DNA from: Candidatus Omnitrophota bacterium
GTDB taxonomy: Bacteria > Omnitrophota > Gorgyraeia > Zapsychrales > JANLHA01
Direction of reading: 5' to 3'
Length of the DNA: 64,000 bases
Assembly: GCA_029560465.1 (NCBI GenBank)
Contig: JAKQKX010000069.1
Span: 77,021 to 141,020, forward strand
Shown: one piece after another, positions 729-22,155 of the stretch
Numbering within the stretch: the stretch's first letter is position 1
Layout of the letters: the number at the start of each line of letters is the position of its first letter
Notes under the pieces: model-generated
Told to the model about the DNA's origin: nothing
The model's input: the letters and a program-made list of their open reading frames with translations, nothing else
Database searches by the model: none
Position numbers and translations under genes: made by a program

Positions 729-1946
729 ATGAATTATAAATTTGTGGCGATGGACCCCAAGGGGAAACGAGTCGCGAACTATGTTATCGCGGAAAATATG
801 GCGTTGGCGATTAAGCGCCTGAAGGACACGCAATTGCTTCCATTAAGGATTGATGAGGCGCCCTCGCTGGCCCACCGGGTGTCCCGTAAAGCCCGGCTGG
901 GTTACGGAGCCGTGACAGCCAAAGATTTGGCCATTTTTACCCGCCAGTTGGCCGCAATGTTAAACGCCGGATTAATTTTGAGTGACGCCTTGCTGGTCCT
1001 CAGCGAGGATTGTGACAATGAAAAACTGCAGAGAATTGTGTTGGATATGCATAAAGGGATTGTGGGCGGATTGAATTTGTCCGGTGTCTTAAGCCGGTAC
1101 CCACAGGTTTTCTCCAGGAGTTATGTCGCTATTATCAAGTCCGGGGAAATGAGCGGGCAGATCAATTATGCCTTGGACGGGCTGGCGGAATATTTGGAGA
1201 AGCAGGAAGAGCTCAAAGAGAGCGTCAAAAGCGCTTTAAGTTATCCTGTTTTTGTCATGATTTTTTCATTTATGGTTATGACGGCGGTGGTGCTGTTTCT
1301 CATTCCAAAATTCCAGGAAATTTATTCCCAGTCCGGGGAGAGCCTTCCATATCTTACCCGGGTGGTCATCGACACGAGCTCTTTTATAAACGCGCACCTT
1401 GGGGAGATTGGTTTTGGCCTGCTTGCGGTTTTGATCCTTCTCTGGCAATCCTTACGTTTTAGCCTGGTTGTCAGGTTGAAAGATATCGTTTTATTGAAAA
1501 TTCCGGTTTTTGGGAAGGGAATTATTCATAAATTTTTATTAGTGCGTTTTTGCCGGACCATGAGCCTTCTTTTGGCCGGAGGGGTTGACTTGTCAACGTC
1601 GTTGACCATCGCTTCCCAGGTGGTGCATCACGATAGCATGAGCAACGCGATTGAGAGGGTCCGCCGTAAGGTTTTGGCCGGGGCATCGATCCATAGCCAG
1701 ATGAAGCAACTGGCGCTGTTTCCGCATCTGGTCGTCAAGATGGTGGATATTGGAGAGAAAACCGGGAATCTCCCCGGGATGCTGACCCGGATCGCCGATT
1801 ACTATGAAAGCGACATGAATCGGATGACCAAAAAGATCCTGCCTTTGATTGAACCGTCTTTGATTGTGTTGATCGGAGGATTTGTTTGTTTTGTTATTGT
1901 GGCGCTGTATTTGCCGGTTTTCAACGTTTCTTTTTTGGTGCAATAA
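729..1946 (+). CDS. Type II secretion system protein F / PilC-like inner-membrane platform protein
   Basis: 405 aa with two T2SSF-like halves and three TM segments; lies 11 nt downstream of the GspE-like gene, the usual E-F order. Confidence 0.8.
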   Translation: MNYKFVAMDPKGKRVANYVIAENMALAIKRLKDTQLLPLRIDEAPSLAHRVSRKARLGYGAVTAKDLAIFTRQLAAMLNAGLILSDALLVLSEDCDNEKLQRIVLDMHKGIVGGLNLSGVLSRYPQVFSRSYVAIIKSGEMSGQINYALDGLAEYLEKQEELKESVKSALSYPVFVMIFSFMVMTAVVLFLIPKFQEIYSQSGESLPYLTRVVIDTSSFINAHLGEIGFGLLAVLILLWQSLRFSLVVRLKDIVLLKIPVFGKGIIHKFLLVRFCRTMSLLLAGGVDLSTSLTIASQVVHHDSMSNAIERVRRKVLAGASIHSQMKQLALFPHLVVKMVDIGEKTGNLPGMLTRIADYYESDMNRMTKKILPLIEPSLIVLIGGFVCFVIVALYLPVFNVSFLVQ

Positions 1947-1960
1947 AGAGAGGGCAGGAC

Positions 1961-2893
1961 ATGCATAGAACAACCATAACTTTAACGGCCCGATCGGCCG
2001 AGGAATTCCAGGGGAAACTGCAGTGGATCGGTAAGCCGTGCCGAAAGCCGCAGCCGCTCGTTCTTTTGTTGCAGGACCCTCGGATTTATGTCAACGCATT
2101 CCAGGTTCCCAATGGCCCGAGGCAGGGCATCCGGTATCATATTTTAATGGAAGCGGTTGAGAAATTGTCGTTACCGGTGGAGGACATCATCTTGGATTAT
2201 CAGATTTTGTCCCGGGATTCTGACATGGTTTTTGGAGTCTACCTCTGCGCTTCCCGGGACACGATTGCGGATTATGCGTCGGTGCCCGACCCCCAGACAG
2301 TCCGCCTGGTGAAGATCACCGACAGATTTTTATGCCTGTTGGAGCGATTCCGGAATCGTCAAAGTTGTCAAGACCGCTGTTACTGCCTTCTTTATATGGA
2401 TCGAGATCAGGAATTTCGCATCGCTGTCTTACAGGACGCCCGGATTACTTTAATCCGCAACGTGATGTTTGAAGATATGAACGAAGCCTCGGATGCGTTG
2501 ATCCAGACGTTACGTTTTGTCTGTGCGAAGAGCAAAATCAAGTCGCTGGACGGTATATATTGGGGCGGGGAAGGGGCCTCGTGTCCTCTCCTGATGGAAA
2601 CCCTTAAGAAGAATGTGGCGGTGGATTGCCCGGTGGAAGAATTGCCAGAAGAAGCTTCTGCGGGGGACATGAATGTGAATTTACTGAGAGAACGTTTGCG
2701 GTGGCAAAGAACGCAGCAGGCCCTGTATGCGGCCTGGACAGCGGGCCTTATGATCGTGTTTATGTTAACAGGCGCACTGACCTGGAAGATTTATCAACTT
2801 GAGACGGAAATCGGGAGCTTCTCCGCGGCCTATACCGTTTATGATTATGAATTAGCCCGGAAATACAAGGAAAGGCTGGCGCCCCATGAATAA
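1961..2893 (+). CDS. Hypothetical bitopic protein, possible GspL/PilM-PilN-like secretion-assembly component
   Basis: ATG at 1961 chosen in-frame to avoid a 60-nt overlap with the upstream gene (tool ORF starts at 1886). ~280-aa cytoplasmic domain, a single C-terminal TM (WTAGLMIVFMLTGALTW), short tail; position in a T2SS/T4P-like operon. Confidence 0.4.
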   Translation: MHRTTITLTARSAEEFQGKLQWIGKPCRKPQPLVLLLQDPRIYVNAFQVPNGPRQGIRYHILMEAVEKLSLPVEDIILDYQILSRDSDMVFGVYLCASRDTIADYASVPDPQTVRLVKITDRFLCLLERFRNRQSCQDRCYCLLYMDRDQEFRIAVLQDARITLIRNVMFEDMNEASDALIQTLRFVCAKSKIKSLDGIYWGGEGASCPLLMETLKKNVAVDCPVEELPEEASAGDMNVNLLRERLRWQRTQQALYAAWTAGLMIVFMLTGALTWKIYQLETEIGSFSAAYTVYDYELARKYKERLAPHE

Positions 2894-3824
2894 AAATATT
2901 CCCTTCTTTTCGTCAGAGTTGAATGTCCTGCCAACGCGATGCGGTGTTGCCCTCCTTTGCTTTATGCTCATCGGCGGTTTTCAGTCGTACTGGATCCACC
3001 AGAGGAGCGTTGTTTTGGCCCTGGAACGGCAGCGGTTCGCCCTGGCAGGAGAAAAGGCCAGGTTGGAAGCGTCATTAAGATCAAAAACAAAAAGGCAGCC
3101 GGTGGCGGTGCAGACCGGGGTTTTTGAGGCGGTGATTGAGGAGAGACGCGGAGTGGAAGCCAGCCCTCTGCCGGTTTTCAAGCGGGAAGCGGTAGAACAG
3201 GCGCGAGCCGAATCTCAGGCGGAAATGTTACCTCCTCTGGAAAGCGTTGTCCAGGAGGCGTCCTTTCCTCACGTGAATGGGATCGTGGAGTATCAAGGCC
3301 GTGCCACGGTCCTGATTCAGGACCGGTATTACGAAGAAGGGGACTTTTTTCAAGATTACCAGATCATCCATATTTCTCCCCGGGCGATCACGATTATCAA
3401 CACATCGACCGCGGAAGTCGCGTATTTGTATTTTTCCGAGGAGGCCGAACGCATGAAGCGGCTGGACCAGGCGTTAAAGACCGCCCAGTTTCACATGATT
3501 GTCCAAAAAGCCTTGGAGGAGAGGATGAAGGACACAGGAACTTTTGACCTGTTCGATAAAACTATTAATAAAGTGCGGAAACTTAAGCTGGGCGGCTTCC
3601 TTCAGGATGTCCAGGAAGGGAAGGATAGTGTGTATGTGCCCGTAGAATTCCAGGATATTCTTCATGATAAAAATGTCAGTGTTATTGCCGTGTTGAAGAA
3701 AGATGGTCATGACTGGGTGATTAAGAGTTGGGAATTGACCGCTATTGAAGACCCGGTCCCTCAAGTTGTTCAAGCTTCCAAGTTGGAGTTATCTTCCGTA
3801 TCAGCCGATCCGTATATCCAATAA
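2886..3824 (+). CDS. Hypothetical N-terminally anchored periplasmic protein, possible GspM/PilN/PilO-like component
   Basis: ATGA start/stop overlap with the previous gene; N-terminal TM (VALLCFMLIGGF) followed by a coiled-coil-like stretch and a periplasmic domain. Confidence 0.35.
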   Translation: MNKNIPFFSSELNVLPTRCGVALLCFMLIGGFQSYWIHQRSVVLALERQRFALAGEKARLEASLRSKTKRQPVAVQTGVFEAVIEERRGVEASPLPVFKREAVEQARAESQAEMLPPLESVVQEASFPHVNGIVEYQGRATVLIQDRYYEEGDFFQDYQIIHISPRAITIINTSTAEVAYLYFSEEAERMKRLDQALKTAQFHMIVQKALEERMKDTGTFDLFDKTINKVRKLKLGGFLQDVQEGKDSVYVPVEFQDILHDKNVSVIAVLKKDGHDWVIKSWELTAIEDPVPQVVQASKLELSSVSADPYIQ

Positions 3825-3940
3825 GCCCCGGCACAGAACAGTGCGTTATAATGGCTGCGGTTGTTTCCGGGGCAGTGCCCTGCCCCCCGGGAGAGAGGGA
3901 ACGGCGAGAGGTGTAACGCAGGGGTTTCGGCAGAGGCCTT

Positions 3941-5137
3941 TTATAGTTTTTTGTAGAGGGCCAGGGTTTTTCTTGCGACTTTTTCCCAAGTAAAATATTG
4001 GAGGACCCGTTGGCGTCCGGCTTTGCCGTACCGGGATCTTAACGTGTCGTTATCCATGAGTTGATTGATGTTGACCGCAAGATGCCTGGAAAATTCTTTC
4101 GGGTTCGTTGGTTCCAGATGGGAGTTTTTCCGCAGCCGGACCGGAACCAACAGCCCCGTTTTTTTGTCTTCCACAACTTCCTTGATCCCTCCGACGGCTG
4201 AAGCCACGACGGGAGTCGCGCAGGCCATGGCTTCGAGATTGATAATCCCAAACGGTTCATAGACGGAAGGACAGCAAAAAACCGCGGCGTGGGAATAGAG
4301 CGCGACTTTTTCTTCCTCGCTGATCATGTCTTTTATCCAGATAACCCCGGGATGGAGCGCTTGGGCTTGCTTGACAAGAGCCACCATCTCCCGGCTGATG
4401 TCCGGCGTGTCCGGGGACCCGGCACAGAGGACGATTTGAAAGTTTTTTTTCATGAAGGGAATGGCGTTCACCAGGTGTAGGATTCCTTTTTGCCTCGTGA
4501 TCCTGCCGACAAAAAGGACGAAAGGCTGGGCGGGATTGATCCCGAAACGCGTCAAAGTCGAGGGGGCTTGAACCGGTTTGTAAATCTGCGGGTTAATGCC
4601 GTTGGGGATGACGTGAATTTTTGATTCAGGAACCCGAGAGAACCGGAGGATATCCTTCTTGGTGTCTTCGGATACGGCTATGATGGCGTCGGCCATTTCA
4701 AGGGTGGTCTTTTCTAGCCAGGAGGTGAAATCATACCCTCCGCCCAATTGCTCTCTTTTCCAGGGACGAAGAGGCTCCAGGGAATGGACCGTGACCACCA
4801 GAGGGATCGCGTAGTTAAGCTTGGCCAGGATCCCTCCCCAATGGGTGTACCAGGTGTGCACATGGATAATGTCCGCGTCGACTTTATCGGTATTAAAATG
4901 CAGGCAGCGTTGCAGGGCATCAAAGACCCGGTTGTGACCGTCGGGGATGGAGTAATGCTCGGTGGAATTCTGATAGCCCGTTACCTTGAGGTTAGCTTGC
5001 CGGTTGTCTTGATCGCCGAAACACCGCACTTCAACCTGGCATAGTTTAGCCAGTTCCCGGCTGAGGTTGGCGACATGAACGCCAGCCCCACCGTAAATAT
5101 AAGGGGGATATTCATTGGTTAACAGCAATAGTTTCAT
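3941..5137 (-). CDS. Glycosyltransferase family 4 (GT-B fold, group 1)
   Basis: N-terminal KLLLLTNEYPPYIYGGAGVHV motif and C-terminal EPFGIINLEAMACATPVVASAVGGIKEVV nucleotide-sugar-binding motif. Confidence 0.8.
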   Translation of the reverse strand: MKLLLLTNEYPPYIYGGAGVHVANLSRELAKLCQVEVRCFGDQDNRQANLKVTGYQNSTEHYSIPDGHNRVFDALQRCLHFNTDKVDADIIHVHTWYTHWGGILAKLNYAIPLVVTVHSLEPLRPWKREQLGGGYDFTSWLEKTTLEMADAIIAVSEDTKKDILRFSRVPESKIHVIPNGINPQIYKPVQAPSTLTRFGINPAQPFVLFVGRITRQKGILHLVNAIPFMKKNFQIVLCAGSPDTPDISREMVALVKQAQALHPGVIWIKDMISEEEKVALYSHAAVFCCPSVYEPFGIINLEAMACATPVVASAVGGIKEVVEDKKTGLLVPVRLRKNSHLEPTNPKEFSRHLAVNINQLMDNDTLRSRYGKAGRQRVLQYFTWEKVARKTLALYKKL

Positions 5138-5280
5138 TGTAGATAAAATGAGAGTGTAAATGATATGTGTCTATTATAAAGGAAATAGGGAAAAAAGAAA
5201 GTTGAATGAAAAAAAAGGGCCTGGGCTCGTAGAATGGCCGATCTCGGAATGCGGCTTTAGGGCGGCCTGGTAGACGCGGG

Positions 5281-6315
5281 TTAATCATCATCTGGTTGCT
5301 GGACACGAAAGTCTGCCCATACCGGCCTGTAATCAGAAATAGCGCTGCCTGCTTTTTGATCATTGTTTTTAAACATGTTTTCGTCAAATTTTGTCACCCC
5401 GGAACGGCCCGTGTATTCCTGGCAGTATTTTTTCTGGAACCAGATGTTGTCATAAAGTCTTGTCCCGGCAATATTTGTCGTGTCCGGGGTTTTGATGAGG
5501 GGAGTCATCGTCGGAAACCGTTTAAGGTTGTCCCACGCTGGGTCTTCGGGAGGGAGGTTAAAGTGACCGAGGAGGATGATATCCTGCTCTCGGGGAAGTT
5601 CTTTTTGTATGAAATTGTAAAGGTCCGGCAGGGCTTTTATTTCAGTGCGACGCTGTTCTTCATTTACGCCCCAGGACATGTGGACAGTGACAAGAGTGAA
5701 GTCAAAATGTCCGGACTGGAACGTGGCGTAGAAAGGCTCTCGGATAAAGGGGGAATCTTTCGGATGGTAAATCATCCCTTCCCCAGACATCGAGATTTTG
5801 TCCGTGCGGTATAGAAACGCGTGAAGACCCGTATGCCGGACAGGCGCGGCCGCGGCAGATATATAGGCGTAAGGCAGCCCGAGGCCTTTTAGGATATCCA
5901 CGATTTTCTTTAGGGCCGTTTCCGTTTCGACCCCTTGAACGGCAACCACATCAAAATATTTGATAATCTGGGCCGTATAACCCAGATCCGGCACGTGGTT
6001 GTTATCAGAAGAACTGATATAAAAAGAAGCGATACGGATATCTCTCGGGGAGGGTTGTTTGGGCTCCTGGGCGTTATCTTGCTTGGAGCCGAGCCGTTTT
6101 TCCGGGGACGGTGTGACGGTTATAATCTTGGGACTGGAATTTTTTTGAAGCTTGGCGACCCGTTTTTTCAACGCTTCTTTGACCTCCGGGAAATATTCCT
6201 CGACAAACCCGGAAATATGGTCTTTGTAGGACCCGATATAGAAGCAGATCACCCCAACAATAATGAGACTGATCAGGCGCATGAGGCATGACGCCCGGAG
6301 ATTGCGAATTTGCAT
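5281..6315 (-). CDS. Secreted or membrane-anchored endonuclease/exonuclease/phosphatase (EEP) family protein
   Basis: N-terminal hydrophobic anchor; C-terminal SDYRPVWADF resembles the EEP/DNase I-like SDHxPV catalytic motif. Confidence 0.55.
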   Translation of the reverse strand: MQIRNLRASCLMRLISLIIVGVICFYIGSYKDHISGFVEEYFPEVKEALKKRVAKLQKNSSPKIITVTPSPEKRLGSKQDNAQEPKQPSPRDIRIASFYISSSDNNHVPDLGYTAQIIKYFDVVAVQGVETETALKKIVDILKGLGLPYAYISAAAAPVRHTGLHAFLYRTDKISMSGEGMIYHPKDSPFIREPFYATFQSGHFDFTLVTVHMSWGVNEEQRRTEIKALPDLYNFIQKELPREQDIILLGHFNLPPEDPAWDNLKRFPTMTPLIKTPDTTNIAGTRLYDNIWFQKKYCQEYTGRSGVTKFDENMFKNNDQKAGSAISDYRPVWADFRVQQPDDD

Positions 6316-6446
6316 GTGTCCTCCTATGGTCTAGAAAATATTGTAGCGGAAAAAATGGTCATGAAAAGCAGAGATCAATATAAAATCGTGCTGAAGACCT
6401 GAACTCAACAGCACGGGGCGAGGGACGCCAGGAAGCGTTTTAAAGA

Positions 6447-7511
6447 TTATTTTTTCTCAAACCTTTTTTTGAAATCCTCTTCTGATTCGAATGCCGTGTC
6501 CTCGGGGTAAGGATATTGGAAATCTTTCGGCTTGAGTTCCTCGTTTATTTTTATGTTTTCAAAAGTGACTTCGACATAAGTTTTTGCTTCGAGCCCCCAT
6601 CGAATGGCGTGGATATCTTTGATCGCCTGCCGGGCGATCTTTTGATTCTCGGCTGAGAGCTCCATTTTTAAAACGGGAAAGATGCTGTTGATGGCTTCTA
6701 TGTCTATGCCCCGCGCGAAAAATTCGTCGGAGTGCCCGGAAAATTCATAATCGATTTTCAAGATAAGATGATTGGACTTGGATATCCAGATCATATACGA
6801 TCCCGAATTGACATCCTGTTTAAAAAGGTAGCAATGTTCTCTCCCAAAAGTGGCATTCCCGAAGTATGAGAAGGTTTTTAGCAAGGCGCACTCGTCTGTA
6901 CAGCCAATAAAGAAATCATATAAAATATTTATATACCCCACGCCCATCCGCGCCAGAATAGCGTTAGGAAGCTGAAAATACTTTTTGTTTTTATAGTAAA
7001 AATGACCTTCTCCGCTGTGCCAGGCCGCGCGGATTTCTTCCACGCTTTTGGGCGCAGATGTTTTTTCCACGATTAAGTAAAAGCCGGGCCGCTGAAATTT
7101 AATGGTGATATATTTATACCCGCTTGAGAGGGAGCTCCCATAATTTGTGTTCGTGATCCCCCCGCCGTTGCATTGGAATGAACTCATTTCTTTATACTTA
7201 GCCAGGACCGCTTTAAGAACCTCTTCGCCCTGGACGTCTTCTCGGGAGATTTTTTGCCCTTTATACAGGAGGACTTCTTGGATTTCTACGGTTTTTTCCG
7301 GAAGAGCACGGTACGCGGCGGCAAATTTTTCATCCATACGTTTGAAGGGGATTTTCAGAACGCTGCTTCCGGTGTTGATTTTGATGTGCTCATCGGTTTT
7401 TTCGACAACCTCCCCCTGAATGACCATCCCGCTTTTGAGCACCACGGATTCTGCGAAAACGGTGTTGGCCGAGAGGAAAAGAAAAACAACTATCCTTAAA
7501 CATTGGCGCAT
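6447..7511 (-). CDS. Secreted hypothetical protein (paralog A of the pair flanking the M48/BI-1 unit)
   Basis: Signal peptide MRQCLRIVVFLFLSANTVFA. Homologous along its whole length to the 9475..10698 product, sharing LKNG..EKT..HIK, YKGKKI.RED, MSSFQCNG, WISK..L...IDY blocks and the acidic C-terminus. Confidence 0.6.
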   Translation of the reverse strand: MRQCLRIVVFLFLSANTVFAESVVLKSGMVIQGEVVEKTDEHIKINTGSSVLKIPFKRMDEKFAAAYRALPEKTVEIQEVLLYKGQKISREDVQGEEVLKAVLAKYKEMSSFQCNGGGITNTNYGSSLSSGYKYITIKFQRPGFYLIVEKTSAPKSVEEIRAAWHSGEGHFYYKNKKYFQLPNAILARMGVGYINILYDFFIGCTDECALLKTFSYFGNATFGREHCYLFKQDVNSGSYMIWISKSNHLILKIDYEFSGHSDEFFARGIDIEAINSIFPVLKMELSAENQKIARQAIKDIHAIRWGLEAKTYVEVTFENIKINEELKPKDFQYPYPEDTAFESEEDFKKRFEKK

Positions 7512-7777
7512 TTTAAACTCCTTTAGTTTATATTATAGATAATAAAACATAAAGTCCAAAAAATCAAAACAAGTTATTTCATCAACCTTAAAATGGCCTT
7601 TTGCACAGAGAAATAACCTTAGGCCCAGATTGCGATTTTATTAAAACCGAAACAAAAGCGGGAGACGCCGTGTGGTATAATAAATGGCCTGTTATTCAAT
7701 GGGGGGACCGGGTGAAAAGTTTGAGCCAAGCTGTTTGCCTGTGTGATTTTGGACCAAAAACAAAGGAAGCGTATTTT

Positions 7778-8590
7778 ATGATGCCGAGAATTAGATTTAT
7801 TTTTATTTGCGTTTGTGCCTGTCTCCTGTCCTCTTGTGCGACCGTTCCCATAACAGGCAGAACCCAATTGGAGCTTATTCCTGCGAATACGATGCTTTCC
7901 ATGAGCTTTCAGCAGTATGATGATTTTTTAAAGAACCATAAATTGAGTGCGGACAGCGCTCAAACGCGAATGGTTAAGACCGTGGGGGAGAGGATTCAGG
8001 GCGCGGTTGAGGAATATATGACGGAGCACGGGCTCTCGGCACGATTGAACGGTTACGTCTGGGAATTTAATGTGGTTGAAAACGAGGAGGCGAACGCTTG
8101 GTGCATGCCGGGGGGGAAAGTCGTCGTTTATACGGGAATTCTTCCGATCACTCAGGATGAGAATGGGTTAGCTGTTGTTTTATCACATGAAATTGCGCAT
8201 GCGATTGCCCGGCACGGGGATGAGCGCATGAGTCAGGGTTTGCTCACGGAGATGGGAGGCTTTGCCCTTTCAACAGCGTTGGAACAGAAACCGGAGAAAA
8301 CCCGGGCGCTCTGGATGACCGCCTTCGGTGTCGGAGCTAATTTGGGGGTTATTTTGCCTTATAGCCGACTTCATGAAAACGAAGCCGATCATTTGGGGTT
8401 GATTTTTATGGCTATGGCTGGTTATGATCCCCACAGGGCGGTCGCATTTTGGGAAAGAATGGCTCAACAGAAAGGAGGCTCGGCCTCGCTGGAGTTTTTA
8501 AGCACGCATCCATCGGACCAGACTCGGATTAATAAGATTTTGGCGACCATCCCCGAGGCGATGAAATATTATAAACCTCGATCTTATTAG
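7778..8590 (+). CDS. M48-family zinc metallopeptidase, lipoprotein
   Basis: HEIAHAIARH (HExxH) plus a downstream NEADHLG third-ligand region typical of M48. Lipoprotein signal with lipobox LLSSC. Start moved to the ATG at 7778, which carries the signal peptide (tool ORF begins 7601). Confidence 0.75.
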   Translation: MMPRIRFIFICVCACLLSSCATVPITGRTQLELIPANTMLSMSFQQYDDFLKNHKLSADSAQTRMVKTVGERIQGAVEEYMTEHGLSARLNGYVWEFNVVENEEANAWCMPGGKVVVYTGILPITQDENGLAVVLSHEIAHAIARHGDERMSQGLLTEMGGFALSTALEQKPEKTRALWMTAFGVGANLGVILPYSRLHENEADHLGLIFMAMAGYDPHRAVAFWERMAQQKGGSASLEFLSTHPSDQTRINKILATIPEAMKYYKPRSY

Positions 8591-8673
8591 GTGGCAGGCT
8601 CTTATAGGGCCTCGTTAGAAAAATGAAAAGAATTTTATTTTAATTATAGTGGTTCATGAAAGGAGGCGTTTTT

Positions 8674-9396
8674 ATGCGTTCAGGCAATCCCGTGTTAACA
8701 GACAACACCTTCAGCGGGGTCCGGTCGTATGAACCGGATGATGTCATGTCGATCCAGGGAACAACCAATAAAAGCTTTATCCTTCTTTTCCTTGTGATGT
8801 TGACGGCAAGCTGGGTATGGAGCAACCCAGCGCCTGGGCTTTCTTTTTTGTTGCCGGCTTTAGTGGGAGGCTTCGTGGCCGCCCTTATCACTATTTTTAA
8901 GAAAGAGTGGTCCCCGGTGACCGCACCGATATACGCTTTTTTGGAGGGGATTGTTCTGGGGGCTGTTTCGATCCTTTTTGAACAATCGTATCCGGGGATC
9001 GTCATGCAGGCGGTTGGACTTACGATGGGAACCTTATGTGCGTTATTAATTGCTTATCGGTCAGGGATGATCACTGTTACGGATCAGTTCCGCAGGGGCA
9101 TTGTGGCCGCCACCGGAGGGATCGCTCTATATTATCTGCTGAGTCTGATCCTGGGGTTTTTTCATATCCGTCTGCCGCTTATCTATAACAGTGGCCCGCT
9201 TGGTATCGGATTCAGCCTTATTGTTGTTATTATTGCCGCTTTGAATCTGGTGCTGGATTTCGATTTTATTGAACGAGGAACCCGTATGGGTGTTCCCAAA
9301 TATATGGAATGGTATGGGGCTTTTGGCCTCATGGTCACTTTGATTTGGCTGTATATGGAAATACTGCGGTTGCTGTCAAAGCTTCGCCGGAGATAA
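8674..9396 (+). CDS. Bax inhibitor-1 / YccA family seven-TM membrane protein
   Basis: Seven predicted TM segments; N-terminus MRSGNPVL and overall helix pattern parallel E. coli YccA. AGGAGG Shine-Dalgarno 7 nt upstream of the ATG at 8674. Confidence 0.65.
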   Translation: MRSGNPVLTDNTFSGVRSYEPDDVMSIQGTTNKSFILLFLVMLTASWVWSNPAPGLSFLLPALVGGFVAALITIFKKEWSPVTAPIYAFLEGIVLGAVSILFEQSYPGIVMQAVGLTMGTLCALLIAYRSGMITVTDQFRRGIVAATGGIALYYLLSLILGFFHIRLPLIYNSGPLGIGFSLIVVIIAALNLVLDFDFIERGTRMGVPKYMEWYGAFGLMVTLIWLYMEILRLLSKLRRR

Positions 9397-9474
9397 AAAA
9401 CGGAATCGTTTTGTTTGCCGCTCACGTCAACGGGGTTTGGCGGAGTCATCAGCTGACTTGGGCAACAAGTTGAT

Positions 9475-10698
9475 TTATTCTTCTTTTTCTTCTTCGAATA
9501 TCTTTTTTAGGTCTTCTTCGGACTGGAAGGCCGTTCCTTCGGGTATCCCGAAGCGAAACTCTCCGGGATCAATTTCCCAGTCGAGTTCAAAATTATCTAG
9601 AGTCAATTCAGCGTAAATACTTGTCTCGTATTGCGGCCCTTTTTTCGGGGGAGGAATGACCTTCTTTTTCTTCTTTTTTTTGGCTTTTTTGGGTTTCGGC
9701 TCGCCTGTTGCCTCGTTTTCTTCTTCAGGGGGCGGCTCGATGTTGAGAATGATTTTTCGGGCGATTTTTATGTTCTCTTCTGAGGGTTCCATCTCCATAG
9801 CCTTGAGGATTGTTTCAATTTCCTCATTTGTCGTAGGCTGGCGGTAAAATTCATCCGGATATCCTGATAGCGTGTAGTCAATTCTAGTAATCAGGTTGCG
9901 TTTTTTTGATATCCAAAGGACATAGTAGCCTATCGGCATGGTGCGGGACAATAGATAGCAGGGTTCGCCGTTTAAGTCCGTGTTCCCCAAATACGCCAGG
10001 TCTTGAACAAGAGGGCATTCTGATTCGCAGCCGGAGAACAATTGATAAAGGATTTTCAGGTATCCGATATCCATCAAAGCCATGGTGTCGTTCGGGGCGT
10101 AATTGTAGGTTTTGGCGGCACTGCTGTAAAAGAGGGTGGTCGCCCCGTTATTCCAAGCGGCCAAGGTTTCCTTGGGCCCTTTGCTAAGCGTGTTTTCGAG
10201 GACAATCAGGAAGTAGTTTGGGCGCTGGAATTTTACGGTGATATACGCCTGAGTCGTGTCCATCATTTTGTCCTGAATGCTGTTGGACACCCCTGTTCCA
10301 TTACATTGGAAGGACGTCATGTCTTTAAACTGGGCAAAGACAGGCTGGAGAATTTTTTCAACATCAGTATCTTCTCGTGTGATTTTTTTCCCTTTATAAA
10401 GAACGGGGGCCTCGCTTTTTGTCATTATCTTTTCAGGGATTTCTTTGACCTGCTCGGCCGTCGCATCGTCCATCATGGTAAAGGGAACTTTGATGACCCC
10501 GTTTTTTGTTTGCATTTTAATATGCCGTTTTGTCTTCTCGATGATCTGCCCTTCCAGGTTTTTCCCATTTTTTAAAAGGATGGTGTCAGCAGATAAGGGC
10601 TGTGTCATGCCGATGATGAAGGTAGCAAGAATGAACGCTCTCAAGGGTTGCCTCCTGTCCGTGCGGAATGGTTTAATGGCGAAGAAAAATTTATTCAT
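9475..10698 (-). CDS. Secreted hypothetical protein (paralog B) with a Lys/Pro-rich insertion
   Basis: Start chosen at MNKFFF (10698) giving signal peptide ...GMTQPLSA; tool ORF extends to 10746. Homologous to the 6447..7511 product and carries an extra KPKKAKKKKKKKVIPPPKKG insert. Confidence 0.6.
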   Translation of the reverse strand: MNKFFFAIKPFRTDRRQPLRAFILATFIIGMTQPLSADTILLKNGKNLEGQIIEKTKRHIKMQTKNGVIKVPFTMMDDATAEQVKEIPEKIMTKSEAPVLYKGKKITREDTDVEKILQPVFAQFKDMTSFQCNGTGVSNSIQDKMMDTTQAYITVKFQRPNYFLIVLENTLSKGPKETLAAWNNGATTLFYSSAAKTYNYAPNDTMALMDIGYLKILYQLFSGCESECPLVQDLAYLGNTDLNGEPCYLLSRTMPIGYYVLWISKKRNLITRIDYTLSGYPDEFYRQPTTNEEIETILKAMEMEPSEENIKIARKIILNIEPPPEEENEATGEPKPKKAKKKKKKKVIPPPKKGPQYETSIYAELTLDNFELDWEIDPGEFRFGIPEGTAFQSEEDLKKIFEEEKEE

Positions 10699-10854
10699 AT
10701 GTTCCAATACTTCCTGAATTATCGGGGAAGACTTTTTGTCCCCCACAATTTCGGGCCTAGCCGTGATTAAGAAATTTTATCATATTTTTAAGCTTATTAT
10801 ATATAATTTCCTTTAACAAAAAAATAGTTTGAAACAGTCCACAGCGCCTTAAGT

Positions 10855-16257: not shown

Positions 16258-17682
16258 ATGTTGTTTAATTCATTAGCCTTTGCCCTCTTCTTGCCGCTCA
16301 CCCTTATCGTCTACTGGGGCCTCTCCAGGAATTTGCGGGTGCAGAATCTGTTTGTTATGGTTATGAGTTATTTCTTTTATGGTTGGTGGGACGCCCGGTT
16401 CCTGGCCTTGCTTTACATGAGCACGATTATAGATTTTTTTGCGGGACAGAAAATTTATACCGCGCGGACTTTGACGCGGAAGAGAATATTCCTGGCCGTT
16501 AGCCTCATCGCCAACTTGGGTATCCTGGGGTTTTTTAAGTATTGTAATTTTTTTATGGAGAGTTTCGTGCTTTTGCTCGGCCGCATGGGATGGCCGGCAC
16601 ATCTCCCCGCATTAAGGATTATTCTTCCCGTCGGGATTAGTTTTTATACTTTTCAGACTTTGAGTTATACGATCGATATTTACCGTCGGCGCATTGAACC
16701 GACAAAAGATTTTATTGCGTTTTCTGCTTTTGTGAGTTTTTTCCCCCAGTTGGTGGCTGGCCCGATCGAACGGGCCAGGAATCTCCTGGGTCAGTTTTTA
16801 CAGCCCAGGAGATTTGACTATGATGAGGCCCGGGACGCTTTGCGTCGGATGCTTTGGGGATTTTTTAAAAAGGTCGTGATTGCAGACCGGTGCGCTTACC
16901 TCGTGGATTTGGTCTTTATCGGGGAAGAGGATCCGACCGGGGTGTCTCTTTTGTTGGGCGTTTTCTTCTTTTCTTTTCAAATTTATTGTGACTTTTCCGG
17001 GTATTCGGATATCGCCATTGGCACGGCGAAACTTTTCGGTTTCCAGCTTATGCAGAATTTTAATTACCCGTATTTTTCACACGATATTGTCGAGTTCTGG
17101 CAGCGCTGGCACATATCCTTGTCAACCTGGTTCCGGGATTATGTTTATATCCCTTTGGGAGGGAACCGTTGTTCGCGGCCGAAGCATTTAAGAAATATAT
17201 TCCTGACGTTCGTTTTAAGCGGACTATGGCATGGGGCGAACTGGACTTTTGTTTTCTGGGGCGCCCTTCATGGTCTGTATTATGTGATGCACCACGTGTT
17301 CTTTATCAGAACGAACCGCCCCCCGGGACACAGTGCCCGGAACTGGCTAGGGCGGGTCCAACAGGGAGTGAACGGGATAATGACGTTTGGCTTGGTTGGG
17401 TTGAGTTGGATTTTTTTCCGTTGCGAAACGCTCGGCCAGGCGTTTAATTATATTTTTTCTGTTTTCTTCCTGAAATTCGGCCGTATCCCGAATAAGATGA
17501 TCCCTGGCTTGATCTTAGTGCTCGTTTTTGTCCTGGTTGAGTTTTTGCAGCGGAATAAGGCCCATGCTCTGGATGTCCGGCACCTCCCGGTCGCCACGCG
17601 TTGGGGAATTTATTATGTCATCATATTCTTAATCATGAACCTGTATGTCCCGGCTAAACCTTTTATCTATTTTCAATTTTAA
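16258..17682 (+). CDS. MBOAT family membrane O-acyltransferase (AlgI/DltB-like)
   Basis: Multi-TM protein with FWQRWHISLSTWFRDYVYIPLGGNR containing the MBOAT catalytic His. Confidence 0.85.
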   Translation: MLFNSLAFALFLPLTLIVYWGLSRNLRVQNLFVMVMSYFFYGWWDARFLALLYMSTIIDFFAGQKIYTARTLTRKRIFLAVSLIANLGILGFFKYCNFFMESFVLLLGRMGWPAHLPALRIILPVGISFYTFQTLSYTIDIYRRRIEPTKDFIAFSAFVSFFPQLVAGPIERARNLLGQFLQPRRFDYDEARDALRRMLWGFFKKVVIADRCAYLVDLVFIGEEDPTGVSLLLGVFFFSFQIYCDFSGYSDIAIGTAKLFGFQLMQNFNYPYFSHDIVEFWQRWHISLSTWFRDYVYIPLGGNRCSRPKHLRNIFLTFVLSGLWHGANWTFVFWGALHGLYYVMHHVFFIRTNRPPGHSARNWLGRVQQGVNGIMTFGLVGLSWIFFRCETLGQAFNYIFSVFFLKFGRIPNKMIPGLILVLVFVLVEFLQRNKAHALDVRHLPVATRWGIYYVIIFLIMNLYVPAKPFIYFQF

Positions 17683-19791: not shown

Positions 19792-22155
19792 TCATTGAGC
19801 CGTGAGGGCGAGAGGAATTTTAACGAGGCGGTCCGCGGACGTGCTTTCGCAGATATTGGCTTTGATTTGAAGGCGGTTTTCCGTCAGGTGTCCTTCCTGT
19901 ATGAGCAGGGCTTTGAGATTTTCCGCTCTCTGTTTTCCAATATCCTGCAGAACAGCGGTTTCGACCTGATACCTTTCCACAAGCTGTTTTCGGAGTTCTT
20001 TGTAAAAGGCGGCCCTGTTTTCCGCCTTGTCCTGGCCCTCCCGGGCCAGCTGCCGGTATGTGTCGCGCAATTCGGTTAATGGTTTCCATCCGACATATTT
20101 TTTATACATCTGTTCAAGGATAAATTCCTCGGATTTGGTCGATTCCCGTCTCGCCTCAGCGTAGCTATTTTGAAACGCGGCGAGTCTTAACGCGTCCGTG
20201 TCACTTTGTGGGTCGTATGCTCCCTGTATTTCCAGAATAAGTTTGGGCCGATCCAGGAGGGCCTTGGATATCTTCAGGACTTTTTCTCTCTGCGGGCCGG
20301 TTAAGTCGGCTGTCCCGGCCGGAAAGCCGATGTAATCCAGCGGTTCGCTGGATTCTCCTCCTCCCACCAGGCCGGCGAGCATGCTGAACGGGGCGGTGAC
20401 AATTTTGGTGAAAATATTTTTAAACGCCATCAGAATAATATGCTTGAATTCAAATTCCGGCTCCGCCGGATTCCCTTTCACGGGTATCGCGAGGTCAATT
20501 TGCTGACGGCTGTCTTCCATAATAGCCAGGGCCAGCTTAATCGGCACTTTAATGGCGTCGGGGCTGTCGACTTTATTGCCCAGGGTGAATTTGTTTAAGA
20601 TCAGGCGATGGTCTCCGGCCATTTGCTGTGGTTTGATGTCATAGGAGATGTCTATTTTTAAACGCCCCAGGTCGATCGCATATCCAAGATATTTCCCGAA
20701 ATAGGGGGAAAGAGCCGTCATTTCATAATCCTGTAAGGATAAACTCAATTTTTTATCCGCGTCCATATTGAGCGGATAAACATAACCGTTGATCGCCAGA
20801 GTACCGGTGGTATCCAGGCGAGTTTTAAGATCAAAGTCGGTGCGCTGGGCGCTGTGCCCGGAAACAGGGGCCAGGGTCAGGTCCAGGGAAGACACGTTTG
20901 TTTTGAACGGCGGCTTAACGGATTGATCGGTGAAGGAGACGGTCCCGTCCTTGAATTGCACCCGGTTGACCAAAAACTGAAAAGCCGGGTTCGAATTTAA
21001 GGTTCCTGCGGTCCCGGCTTGACTTGGCTGGGCCGGAGGTGTTGGGCCGGGTTTTGCTTCCGTATCGGACGGCCCGGGTGATGCCGGGGCGAATAACCGC
21101 ACGAAATTGATTTGGCCTTTTTCGTCCATGACGGCGGAAATATGGAGTTTATCCAAGAGGATGTCTTCAATGTTCAGGGTTTGGTCCAGGAGGGAAAGAT
21201 TGATATTCTTAAAGGAAAGAGTTTCCCACCCGAAAACGTCCATTTGGGTTTGGGGGTCAAAAATTTTTAAACCTGCCAAACGCAAGGACCCTTTAAAGCC
21301 AGCATTAGGCTGGGCCTGATTCCCTGCTCGGTAAGACATTTCGCCGTTCAGGGACAAGGTCCCGTCCTTAAGCTGCAGGGGGAGGGTATTGGCGATATAC
21401 GGCTGCAGGACGTTTAAGGGTATGGAATGGATATCAATGGTCGTGTGACAGGCTAAGGCCCCGATCGAGCAGGCGCCCTGAACAGCAATCGTTCCCTGGG
21501 GGCCGTTGAGGAGGCGGACCTGTAAGCCGCTGGCTTTGTCGACTCGGGTGGTTAGATGCTCCAGACGGGTGTTGATGGGCCGGAGAGAGAATTCAAAGGG
21601 TGTTTGCGGTGTTTCATCGCGAAAATGGACTGTGCCGTTTGTGAGGCGGAAGGAAGAGATGAGGACCGCTTTGGGGTTTTCCTTTTTATCTTCTTGCTCC
21701 TCTGTTTCGGGTTTTGGAGTCGGCGAAGGGGCGCCGTCGCCTGGTGTGGCAGCGTCCCCGGCAGGCGGTACTAAGTCTAACAGGTTCAAGCGGCCGTCCC
21801 GGGTTAAGACGATGTTGATATACGGCTGGTCTAGAAAAATATGTTGAAACGACCAATCATCAGCCCAAAGGGAGGACAACTGAAAGTCAACGTCCAGTCC
21901 TTCAAACCCGACAACCCGGGTTCCGGATTGGTTGATCAATTCAAACTGCTGCAGGGTGAACCTGAATTGGAAGGGGTCGAAGTGTATCTTGCGGATATAG
22001 ATGTTATGTCTAAGGAGGGCCGGGATTTTATGACTCAGCGTCCAGTGCAGCGCGTACGGCACAACAACACACCCCAGGAAGGCGTAGAATAATATCAGTC
22101 CAATGAAAATATAAGCAATTTTCTTGAGAAATTTTGGCGCTGATATTTTTATCAT
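19792..22155 (-). CDS. DUF748 / AsmA-like large envelope protein
   Basis: 787 aa with an N-terminal TM anchor followed by the IHFDPFQFRF...DLVPP AsmA/DUF748-like N-domain and a Pro/Thr-rich linker. Confidence 0.55.
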   Translation of the reverse strand: MIKISAPKFLKKIAYIFIGLILFYAFLGCVVVPYALHWTLSHKIPALLRHNIYIRKIHFDPFQFRFTLQQFELINQSGTRVVGFEGLDVDFQLSSLWADDWSFQHIFLDQPYINIVLTRDGRLNLLDLVPPAGDAATPGDGAPSPTPKPETEEQEDKKENPKAVLISSFRLTNGTVHFRDETPQTPFEFSLRPINTRLEHLTTRVDKASGLQVRLLNGPQGTIAVQGACSIGALACHTTIDIHSIPLNVLQPYIANTLPLQLKDGTLSLNGEMSYRAGNQAQPNAGFKGSLRLAGLKIFDPQTQMDVFGWETLSFKNINLSLLDQTLNIEDILLDKLHISAVMDEKGQINFVRLFAPASPGPSDTEAKPGPTPPAQPSQAGTAGTLNSNPAFQFLVNRVQFKDGTVSFTDQSVKPPFKTNVSSLDLTLAPVSGHSAQRTDFDLKTRLDTTGTLAINGYVYPLNMDADKKLSLSLQDYEMTALSPYFGKYLGYAIDLGRLKIDISYDIKPQQMAGDHRLILNKFTLGNKVDSPDAIKVPIKLALAIMEDSRQQIDLAIPVKGNPAEPEFEFKHIILMAFKNIFTKIVTAPFSMLAGLVGGGESSEPLDYIGFPAGTADLTGPQREKVLKISKALLDRPKLILEIQGAYDPQSDTDALRLAAFQNSYAEARRESTKSEEFILEQMYKKYVGWKPLTELRDTYRQLAREGQDKAENRAAFYKELRKQLVERYQVETAVLQDIGKQRAENLKALLIQEGHLTENRLQIKANICESTSADRLVKIPLALTAQ

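Follow-up and report, generated by a model that had tools for sequence, protein, structure and literature searches.

Genes and promoters at the locus

We analyzed a 64,000-nucleotide stretch of Omnitrophota DNA (the window) in which a preliminary description had seen two homologous secreted proteins, here A and B, bracketing an M48 lipoprotein peptidase and a protein of the BI-1/YccA type, here M48 and BaxI_1. All four open reading frames are present as described, and A and B are full-length paralogs, both on the minus strand. The features of the locus are the following.

6447 to 7511, minus strand: paralog A, 354 aa
6546 to 7229, minus strand: LolA-superfamily domain of A, residues ~95 to 322, delimited by the secondary structure of the model and the invariant columns
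7539 to 7567, minus strand: sigma-70-like promoter of A (TTGATT, 17-nt spacer, TATTAT), from a promoter scan
7673 to 7681, plus strand: extended -10 element TGgTATAAT, likely a separate promoter of M48-BaxI_1
7778 to 8590, plus strand: M48 zinc metallopeptidase lipoprotein, 270 aa (PF01435, 6.4e-33)
8656 to 9396, plus strand: BaxI_1 (PF12811), BI-1-like inner-membrane protein (Pfam 4.6e-79, full length)
9475 to 10644, minus strand: paralog B, 389 aa from a probable TTG start at 10644

A and M48 are divergent, with an intergenic region of 233 to 366 bp across the aligned genomes. M48 and BaxI_1, both on the plus strand, follow each other with a gap of 65 bp and are probably co-transcribed; B, downstream of a DJ-1 gene, is convergent with BaxI_1. 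The length of about 350 aa first given for A agrees with the 354 aa found, whereas the 405 aa given for B probably does not hold: since its orthologues have 381 to 390 aa and begin MRAFI or LRAFI, B probably starts at TTG 10644 rather than at 10746 or at the start of the ~405-aa call. Orthologues of like length (265 to 274 aa) make ATG 7778 the probable start of M48, rather than TTG 7601, and BaxI_1 probably begins at ATG 8674 (240 aa) because its orthologues are 240 aa long and start MRSGNP. The window holds no further A/B paralogs, and Rfam and tRNA scans of it gave no matches.

When the six related intergenic regions were aligned, the promoter of A proved to be conserved throughout. The element TGgTATAAT matches the consensus of an extended -10 box and is the likely promoter from which M48 and BaxI_1 are read; a corresponding TATAAT box occurs in relatives, where L001, L002 and L003 have the block TTATTATAGTAC on the opposite strand. 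A regulatory element common to A and M48 was considered and rejected, as the six aligned regions give two separate conserved promoter boxes; they contain neither a shared operator-like element nor a common palindrome.

The M48 protein fits its description as an HExxH lipoprotein peptidase. It has HEIAH at residues 137 to 141 and ENEAD at 200 to 204, that is, the HExxH motif and downstream Glu ligand of peptidase family M48, and it has a single hydrophobic segment, at the N terminus, whose end is the lipobox LLSSC, with the cysteine at position 20 and Ala at position +2. It has no TM helices, and no TPR domain because 270 aa leave no room for one. The best solved relatives are 3c37 (6.8e-28) and BepA (2.6e-15), while the HtpX model scores 12.5 bits against a cutoff of 369. 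Judged by these matches, the enzyme, a lipoprotein with a soluble domain, belongs to the BepA/LoiP/3c37 type and is not an HtpX.

BaxI_1 shows six hydrophobic segments above threshold and a weaker first one, which bears out the proposed count of about seven TM helices. Its kinship with BI-1 also stands (PF12811, 265.7 bits against a cutoff of 26.2), whereas membership of PF01027, the family of YccA and BI-1 themselves, does not (30.1 bits against a gathering threshold of 34.1). By its family scores, BaxI_1 is a member of PF12811 and merely a relative of YccA. An NCBIfam search gave no match, and a PDB sequence search found no solved relative.

These assignments bear on the proposal that the four genes form a protease module, in which A and B would be substrates, inhibitors or adaptors of an M48/BI-1 pair acting like HtpX and YccA. 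BI-1/YccA family members do modulate FtsH-type membrane proteases, as YccA does FtsH and TMBIM5 does AFG3L2 (PMC9379554, PMC7876416). However, the documented protease partner of YccA is the AAA protease FtsH and not an M48 enzyme (PMC7876416, PMC9379554); of the two partners named for YccA in the preliminary description, FtsH is thus documented, while HtpX is known only to be co-regulated with YccA and jointly required under AmgRS (PMC12906115). Moreover, A, B and M48 are periplasmic, whereas control of the YccA type takes place at the inner membrane and on the cytoplasmic side of it. We rejected the HtpX-YccA analogy because neither the subtype of the M48 enzyme nor its compartment agrees with it.

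Architecture and predicted fold of A and B

BLASTP aligned A and B from end to end with 37% identity and 57% positives (E 2e-92), a similarity that is far above chance. Across 11 aligned family members the blocks SFQCNG and (K/R)IDY..SG..DEF and the acidic tail F(E/Q)SEED are invariant, in agreement with the conserved blocks and acidic C termini noted at the outset. The signal peptides proposed for both proteins were likewise found; they are of the Sec type, with predicted cleavage between TVFA and ESVV in A and between PLSA and DTIL in B. Neither has a lipobox, and we rejected A and B as lipoproteins because no lipobox cysteine is conserved in either.

In A, the signal peptide (residues 1 to 20) is followed by an SH3-like beta module (~21 to 55), a linker, a LolA-like barrel with a helical lid (~95 to 322) and the acidic tail. 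B has the same architecture with a Lys/Pro-rich low-complexity insert ahead of the last strand. The domain of A contains Cys114 in strand 1 and Cys204 and Cys208 in the helical lid; all three are conserved in the A/B clade only and are absent from the outgroup proteins P0132 and P0134.

The AF2 model of A (pLDDT 79) fits the LolA-like superfamily, which is defined by an unclosed antiparallel beta-barrel of 11 to 12 strands with an alpha-helical lid or plug. Its best structural matches are LolA and LolB, and all top five Foldseek matches are LolA, so the LolA-like fold raised as a possibility in the preliminary description was borne out for A. The model of B was poor (pLDDT 49, pTM 0.40) and was set aside as unusable, although the order of its secondary-structure elements mirrors that of A; the fold of B was therefore assigned from its homology to A and its match to DUF2092 (PF09865; 2.1e-5, 24.4 bits, gathering threshold 21.2 bits). 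DUF2092 gave no match to A at E <= 0.1, but an orthologue of A (P0002) is annotated as DUF2092, and distant homologues match DUF2092/LolA_like. A link between DUF2092 and LolA was described earlier (PMC4520260). The LolA and LolB models of Pfam and NCBIfam did not match A or B at E <= 0.1, and a PDB sequence search with the A/B profile gave no matches.

The fold suggests what the two proteins might do. A and B would shield a hydrophobic ligand in the barrel, either lipoprotein acyl chains or an envelope lipid, and would carry or present it in the periplasm, with the N-terminal SH3-like module as a possible localization or interaction handle. Shielding or carriage of a ligand is the most likely role that the predicted fold points to. 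LolA-fold proteins also include sensors and regulators (RseB/MucB) and even an enzyme (VioE), and for this reason a carrier role is open to doubt.

In a rival reading, A and B would be the functional equivalents of LolA and LolB in this lineage, lipoprotein-sorting chaperones with the M48 lipoprotein as one cargo. Such a role would fit the structural matches to LolA and LolB, the presence of two paralogs and the neighboring gene for a lipoprotein with Ala at +2. It is at odds with the lack of matches to the LolA and LolB family models and with the fact that neither A nor B is a lipoprotein, as LolB is; LolCDE genes are not consistently adjacent, and B is dispensable in OY759724. The distribution also argues against it: a factor essential for trafficking would be expected throughout the phylum, and the A/B subfamily turned up in only about six related genomes, all from one Omnitrophota subclade. 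We consider this role extremely improbable.

Full-length relatives of A and B were found in Omnitrophota MAGs only, and among 5.8 billion proteins there were seven protein clusters for A and five for B. An exhaustive HMM search returned 836 hits, most of which covered only positions 90 to 344 or only positions 1 to 80. Proteins matching the N-terminal part alone bear TPR, MORN_2, trypsin-like or HEAT domains; in Omnitrophota the SH3-like module occurs, as far as domain matches tell, in fusion with many different periplasmic domains. M48 and BaxI_1 were present at 3 of 45 loci of module-bearing proteins, namely those with full-length homologues of A (L006 to L008), and at none of the 42 loci whose proteins share only the N-terminal module.

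Gene order in relatives and its history

Each of the six genomes with A keeps A, M48 and BaxI_1 side by side, in a comparative sample that is small and made up of MAGs. The full order A-M48-BaxI_1-B is limited to the window, L005/L007 and L006. Two genes, encoding GNAT and PIG-L proteins, separate BaxI_1 from B in L003, and six genes do so in L001/L004. In OY759724 B is absent; the protein present there groups with A in the tree, and B has therefore been lost. Hence, of the proposed four-gene arrangement, the A-M48-BaxI_1 part was kept and the position of B was not.

In the outgroup L138, BaxI_1 precedes GNAT and PIG-L genes that are homologous (42% and 51%), neither of which is present in the window. 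The ancestral order was probably BaxI_1-GNAT-PIG-L, and from this it follows that the bracketing by B arose through deletion. In the history that we propose, a local duplication would have given A and B, BaxI_1 would originally have been followed by the GNAT and PIG-L genes, and their loss in the sublineage of the window would have brought B next to BaxI_1. These comparisons suggest that the flanking layout stems mostly from local duplication and later deletion, and not from a four-gene machine.

The four-gene module is accordingly weakly supported. In its favor, the window, L005/L007 and L006 have the four genes in one uninterrupted run. Against it, the adjacency of B and BaxI_1 is derived, B is split off by two or by six genes or lost in a third relative, and the M48 enzyme differs in type from HtpX. 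Paralogs scattered without the protease/BI-1 pair, which the preliminary description had itself named as contrary evidence, were seen in part: B is displaced or lost, and neither M48 nor BaxI_1 lies close to P0132, the nearest outgroup homologue. The roles of A and B as substrates, inhibitors or adaptors of the pair were not upheld, and we give the module very little credence.

A smaller unit has more in its favor. A might be a LolA-fold sensor or regulator of M48, in the way that RseB/MucB gates proteolysis through lipidic signals, with BaxI_1 as a co-transcribed membrane partner and B as a diverged spare. The A-M48 and M48-BaxI_1 junctions are unbroken in the six genomes, while the two neighboring junctions have been broken repeatedly, which is equally expected of a real A-M48-BaxI_1 unit; the divergent transcription of A and M48 and the short gap between M48 and BaxI_1 would also suit it. 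Since an M48 orthologue (52% identity) is still linked to BaxI_1 in the more distant genome L054, where it lies two genes upstream, the M48-BaxI_1 linkage may be older than the A/B family. In addition, Pseudomonas aeruginosa needs YccA together with HtpX, itself an M48 enzyme, to withstand a defect in lipoprotein maturation (PMC12906115).

Other results weigh against the three-gene unit. Its synteny is limited to one narrow clade, in which the unrelated neighbors DJ-1, DUF349, MarR and GT4 are syntenic too; the trio does not extend beyond close, globally syntenic genomes as a conserved module should. A and M48 have separate promoters with no shared operator, and both partners are missing from the surroundings of P0132. 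M48 is near BaxI_1 in only one of five outgroup contexts and at 2 of 80 metagenomic loci, a count obtained by tblastn with one M48 query that may miss very divergent M48 proteins, and with less than 2 kb of flank at 18 of the 80 loci. None of the 80 loci has an A/B-like gene. We regard the three-gene unit as unlikely. The more specific form, in which A is a dedicated lipid or lipoprotein sensor that controls M48 or delivers substrates to it, together with the BI-1-like membrane partner, as an undescribed envelope-surveillance unit of the RseB type, appears distinctly improbable. A working relationship between A and M48 is possible and stands as a candidate; B and BaxI_1 are not demonstrably parts of any such unit.

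A radical-SAM/ABC/FtsX cassette beside A in L002 and L003 was considered as a LolCDE equivalent and rejected, since neither the window nor L001/L005 contains it; it has the look of an insertion that varies between genomes.

Taken together, these results favor a conservative reading: A and B are probably ancient paralogs of a lineage-specific periplasmic family with a LolA-superfamily half-barrel and helical lid, related to DUF2092, and the flanking layout is historical. If so, the gain is one of annotation, as two hypothetical proteins of an uncultured phylum can be named as periplasmic members of the LolA superfamily that carry a promiscuous SH3-like module at the N terminus, and an attractive-looking cluster is largely the product of duplication and deletion. 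The regulation and substrate finding of periplasmic M48 proteases such as BepA, LoiP and YcaL is an active question. If A does partner the M48 lipoprotein, a LolA-fold regulator would be a new solution to it, and lipoprotein or lipid status would be tied to proteolysis, as the need for HtpX and YccA under LspA depletion in P. aeruginosa hints (PMC12906115).

Comparison with known systems

Like BepA, LoiP and YcaL, the M48 protein has an M48 catalytic domain with HExxH and a downstream Glu, and it shares with LoiP and YcaL a periplasm-facing, lipid-anchored location. Unlike BepA it has no TPR domain, and its scores lie far under the NCBIfam cutoffs for equivalogs of BepA (89.4 bits, cutoff 570) and LoiP (54.2 bits, cutoff 365). 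BaxI_1 resembles YccA and BI-1 (TMBIM) in its approximately seven TM helices and its membership of a related family (PF12811). It differs in falling under the PF01027 gathering score and in its linkage, in relatives and the outgroup, to GNAT and PIG-L rather than to M48.

A resembles RseB/MucB in being periplasmic and, by mechanistic analogy, in being encoded beside a protease-related gene (M48). A and B have neither a MucB_RseB Pfam match nor the RseB C-terminal domain and thus are not RseB/MucB proteins. There are no sigma-E or anti-sigma genes nearby, which also tells against the three-gene unit, and the protease is M48 instead of DegS or RseP.

With LolA and the LolA_LolB clan, which includes DUF2092, A and B share a periplasmic location and a Sec signal peptide, and B passes the DUF2092 score. 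Canonical LolA and LolB are single domains of about 180 to 200 aa that match their family models and work with LolCDE, LolB being a lipoprotein, and A and B (354 and 389 aa) are not of this kind. They have about 10% sequence identity to LolA and are about twice its size, with the SH3-like N-terminal module, a helical insert past the barrel and the acidic tail added; they also differ in having the clade-specific cysteine triad, a very narrow phylogenetic range and no linkage to LolCDE. Our verdict is that A and B are a lineage-specific subfamily of a known superfamily.

The four genes and the fold of A and B

All four genes of the preliminary description are present in the window, and the paralogy of the secreted proteins A and B, as well as the sequence blocks quoted for them, was verified. 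The mechanical ORF starts at 7601 (M48), 8656 (BaxI_1) and 10746 (B) are too far upstream of the likely true starts, which we corrected on the basis of orthologue lengths and signal-peptide position.

Genes and modules in the window
5281-6315, minus strand, EEP-like nuclease, 344 aa, N-terminal hydrophobic anchor
6447-7511, minus strand, A, 354 aa
7338-7451, SH3-like N-terminal module of A (residues 21-58), after the signal peptide, xSVVLKSG...G.I.EKT..I.I
7601-8590, plus strand, M48 peptidase ORF, likely start ATG 7778, 270 aa
8656-9396, plus strand, BI-1-like (BaxI_1) ORF, likely start ATG 8674, 240 aa
9475 (end of stop) to likely start TTG 10644, minus strand, B, 389 aa
10474-10587, the same module in B

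The peptidase matches Pfam M48 (6.4e-33), carries HEIAH and ENEAD motifs and has a single N-terminal hydrophobic segment that ends in an LLSSC lipobox. The PF12811 (BaxI_1) match spans the entire fourth protein (4.6e-79), in which about seven segments are hydrophobic.

BLASTP aligns A with B over their whole length (37% identity, 57% positives, E 2e-92). When 11 family sequences were aligned, the blocks SFQCNG and IDY..G..DEF, the acidic tail F-E/Q-S-E-E-D and the cysteines C114, C204 and C208 were invariant or nearly so; the cysteine triad was not found in the outgroup homologues P0132 and P0134. Both N-termini are Sec-type signal peptides, and inspection of the two sequences revealed a lipobox in neither. 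The AlphaFold2 model of A (pLDDT 79, pTM 0.70) contains an N-terminal beta module of four strands (residues 21-55), a linker, a helix and a long antiparallel sheet within which lies a helical segment (residues 184-213, bearing C204 and C208), followed by a helical insert, the last strand and the acidic tail. B's own model (pLDDT 49) was too poor and was left out of the fold assignment, and B exceeds the gathering score of DUF2092, a family whose relationship to LolA was published previously (PMC4520260). The model of A and the DUF2092 match of B bear out the earlier guess of a LolA-like fold: both proteins carry the LolA-superfamily fold. With this fold, A and B would be periplasmic binders of a hydrophobic ligand; that they serve as the lineage's LolA and LolB is, in our judgement, very unlikely.

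The A/B family tolerates large disordered insertions. P0007 (L002/L008 8001-9698), the sole A-type homologue in OY759724, has a 72-residue Pro/Ala/Glu/Lys-rich insert placed exactly between both lid cysteines and a repetitive, Lys/Glu-rich C-terminal tail of ~140 residues. The insert of B differs, being Lys/Pro-rich and preceding the last strand.

A narrowly distributed subfamily built from independent modules

The A/B subfamily is restricted to a single narrow Omnitrophota subclade, since full-length relatives occur in only three MAGs among GTDB contigs with one genome per species (two labelled Candidatus Omnitrophota, one 'uncultured Planctomycetales') and word-indexed searches of 5.8 billion proteins yielded few clusters (7 for A, 5 for B). 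Searching 1.84 billion representatives exhaustively with a profile gave 836 matches, only three of them from the A/B clade; next best were P0132 (5.5e-38) and P0134, both with the full architecture. Most remaining matches cover either the LolA-like part alone (positions 90-344), in DUF2092/LolA_like proteins, or the N-terminal 80 residues alone, in proteins bearing TPR, MORN_2, trypsin-like plus TPR, or HEAT domains. The N-terminal and LolA-like parts behave as independent modules. By itself, the SH3-like module matches in the 42 further loci of the GTDB contigs (L009-L050), mostly Omnitrophota, and is a promiscuous leader domain; the only name NCBIfam has for it is the Leptospira 'LA_0442/LA_0875 N-terminal domain', under whose cutoff it scores.

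With P0132 and P0134 as root, a neighbour-joining tree separated the A group from the B group and placed the only homologue of chromosome OY759724 (565 aa) within the A group. The duplication is therefore older than that split, and B was lost in OY759724.

Gene order and the origin of the bracket

Contexts of A-bearing relatives were listed in window gene order: DJ-1, B, BaxI_1, M48, A, EEP-like nuclease, GT4.

Gene order in the window and its relatives
Window, L005/L007, L006: identical four-gene order
L003: PIG-L and GNAT between B and BaxI_1-M48-A
L001/L004: B and BaxI_1 six genes apart
L002/L008 (OY759724): B absent, its place taken by two unrelated genes

The A/M48 and M48/BaxI_1 junctions are unbroken in 6/6 genomes, and the BaxI_1/B and A/nuclease junctions are each changed in three lineages. 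Synteny extends to the wider surroundings (DUF349, MarR, C92, DJ-1, GT4); because the genomes are close relatives, it is weak evidence of function. P0132, the nearest full-length outgroup homologue, is flanked by a small uncharacterised gene on one side and a Na+/H+ exchanger on the other, and has neither an M48 nor a BaxI_1 gene as neighbour. The earlier proposal of a functional four-gene module thus keeps the A-M48-BaxI_1 junctions in its favour but has against it that paralogs lie away from the protease/BI-1 pair in some relatives, B being displaced (L003, L001/L004) or lost (OY759724) and P0132 standing without partners; we regard it as quite unlikely. Two genes upstream of P0132 is a PrsW-family membrane protease (L055 4601-7149), which gives this architecture another protease neighbour, unlike the first; this may be coincidence.

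BaxI_1 proteins of 63-72% identity occur in five distinct contexts (L051, L052, L054, L138, L140), with an M48 gene nearby only in L054 (52% identical, same strand, two genes upstream, separated from BaxI_1 by an S11 peptidase gene and an 88-aa ORF). A metagenome scan with the BaxI_1 profile returned 80 loci (53-65% identity, 515 kb of flanking sequence). None had an A/B-like gene, and an M48-like gene was seen in 2 (30% identity, 2.5 and 4.1 kb off) against roughly 0.5 expected by chance, given a few M48 genes per genome, so M48 is not enriched near BaxI_1. The L054 string (2085-5723, GCA_042571725.1, a more distant Omnitrophota) reads DsbA-like (divergent), M48, S11 D-Ala-D-Ala carboxypeptidase/beta-lactamase-like, 88-aa ORF, BaxI_1; its last four genes are co-stranded, and it resembles an envelope-maintenance string without a LolA-like gene.

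In the outgroup L138, GNAT and then PIG-L follow BaxI_1 co-directionally and are homologous (42%, 51%) to the genes of L001 and L003 (BaxI_1-GNAT-PIG-L at L138 6001-9035, L001 3902-6769 and L003 3851-6694); neither gene of this linkage is in the 64-kb window. Judged from these sequences, BaxI_1-GNAT-PIG-L is probably the ancestral order, in which case the B/BaxI_1 contact that makes the bracket would be a derived product of GNAT and PIG-L deletion. The proximity of A and B would result from local duplication. The link of BaxI_1 to this acetyltransferase and deacetylase seems older than that to M48 and may be a better clue to its role.

The 344-aa EEP-like protein, which weakly resembles MnuA, a membrane nuclease, and the exonuclease III (EEP) fold and has no Pfam match at E <= 0.1, adjoins A or stays close in relatives (49-72% identity). 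In relatives, its junction with A (window 6316-6446) is a hot spot for insertions (L001 9174-10910; L002 9794-12807; L003 9167-14073): MurJ and Smr occupy it in L001 and L003, and L002 and L003 carry there a cassette of radical-SAM/SPASM, ABC ATPase and MacB/FtsX-type permease genes. Neither insertion is present in the window. Envelope genes abound in the wider context (91-1946, 16258-17682 and 19792-22155), with T2SSE/T2SSF (ATPase and platform protein of type II/IV secretion), an MBOAT acyltransferase and an AsmA/DUF748 protein of 787 aa. Two ORFs past T2SSF (1886-2893 and 2886-3824, together 1886-3824) have no Pfam match. GC skew is positive in all 2-kb bins of 1-64000 and the cumulative curve climbs steadily, so the entire window probably belongs to a single replichore; scans of the 64 kb gave neither tRNA genes nor Rfam families.

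Taken together, the paralogy, LolA-superfamily fold, modular architecture, narrow distribution and synteny pattern of A and B are firm, and these proteins are new lineage-specific members of a known superfamily beside ordinary envelope genes.

Regulation and the protease analogy

The A/M48 intergenic region (233-366 bp among relatives) contains a conserved predicted A promoter (TTGATT-17-TATTAT). A distinct TATAAT box on the opposite strand, which reads TGgTATAAT in the window, is assigned to M48. The regions compared showed neither a common palindrome nor an operator-like block. M48 and BaxI_1, on one strand and 65 bp apart, are probably co-transcribed, and B follows downstream of DJ-1, convergent with BaxI_1. 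A may work in an RseB-like manner with the M48 lipoprotein, BaxI_1 being co-transcribed, though the probability is low.

The closest solved relatives of M48 are the Geobacter M48 protein 3c37 (6.8e-28) and BepA (2.6e-15), its score with the HtpX model is only 12.5 bits, and hydropathy revealed no TM helices, which makes it a periplasm-facing lipoprotein of the BepA/LoiP/YcaL kind, although it scores under both the BepA and LoiP equivalog cutoffs. The suggested pairing in the style of HtpX and YccA does not hold, as M48 is not HtpX-type and the documented protease of YccA, which is both substrate and inhibitor, is FtsH (PMC7876416, PMC9379554). AmgRS co-regulates HtpX and YccA, and Pseudomonas aeruginosa needs both to survive LspA depletion (PMC12906115). 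This literature is no mechanistic precedent for BI-1 action on a periplasmic M48 lipoprotein; what it offers is a thematic link that ties an M48 enzyme and a BI-1-like protein to lipoprotein stress.
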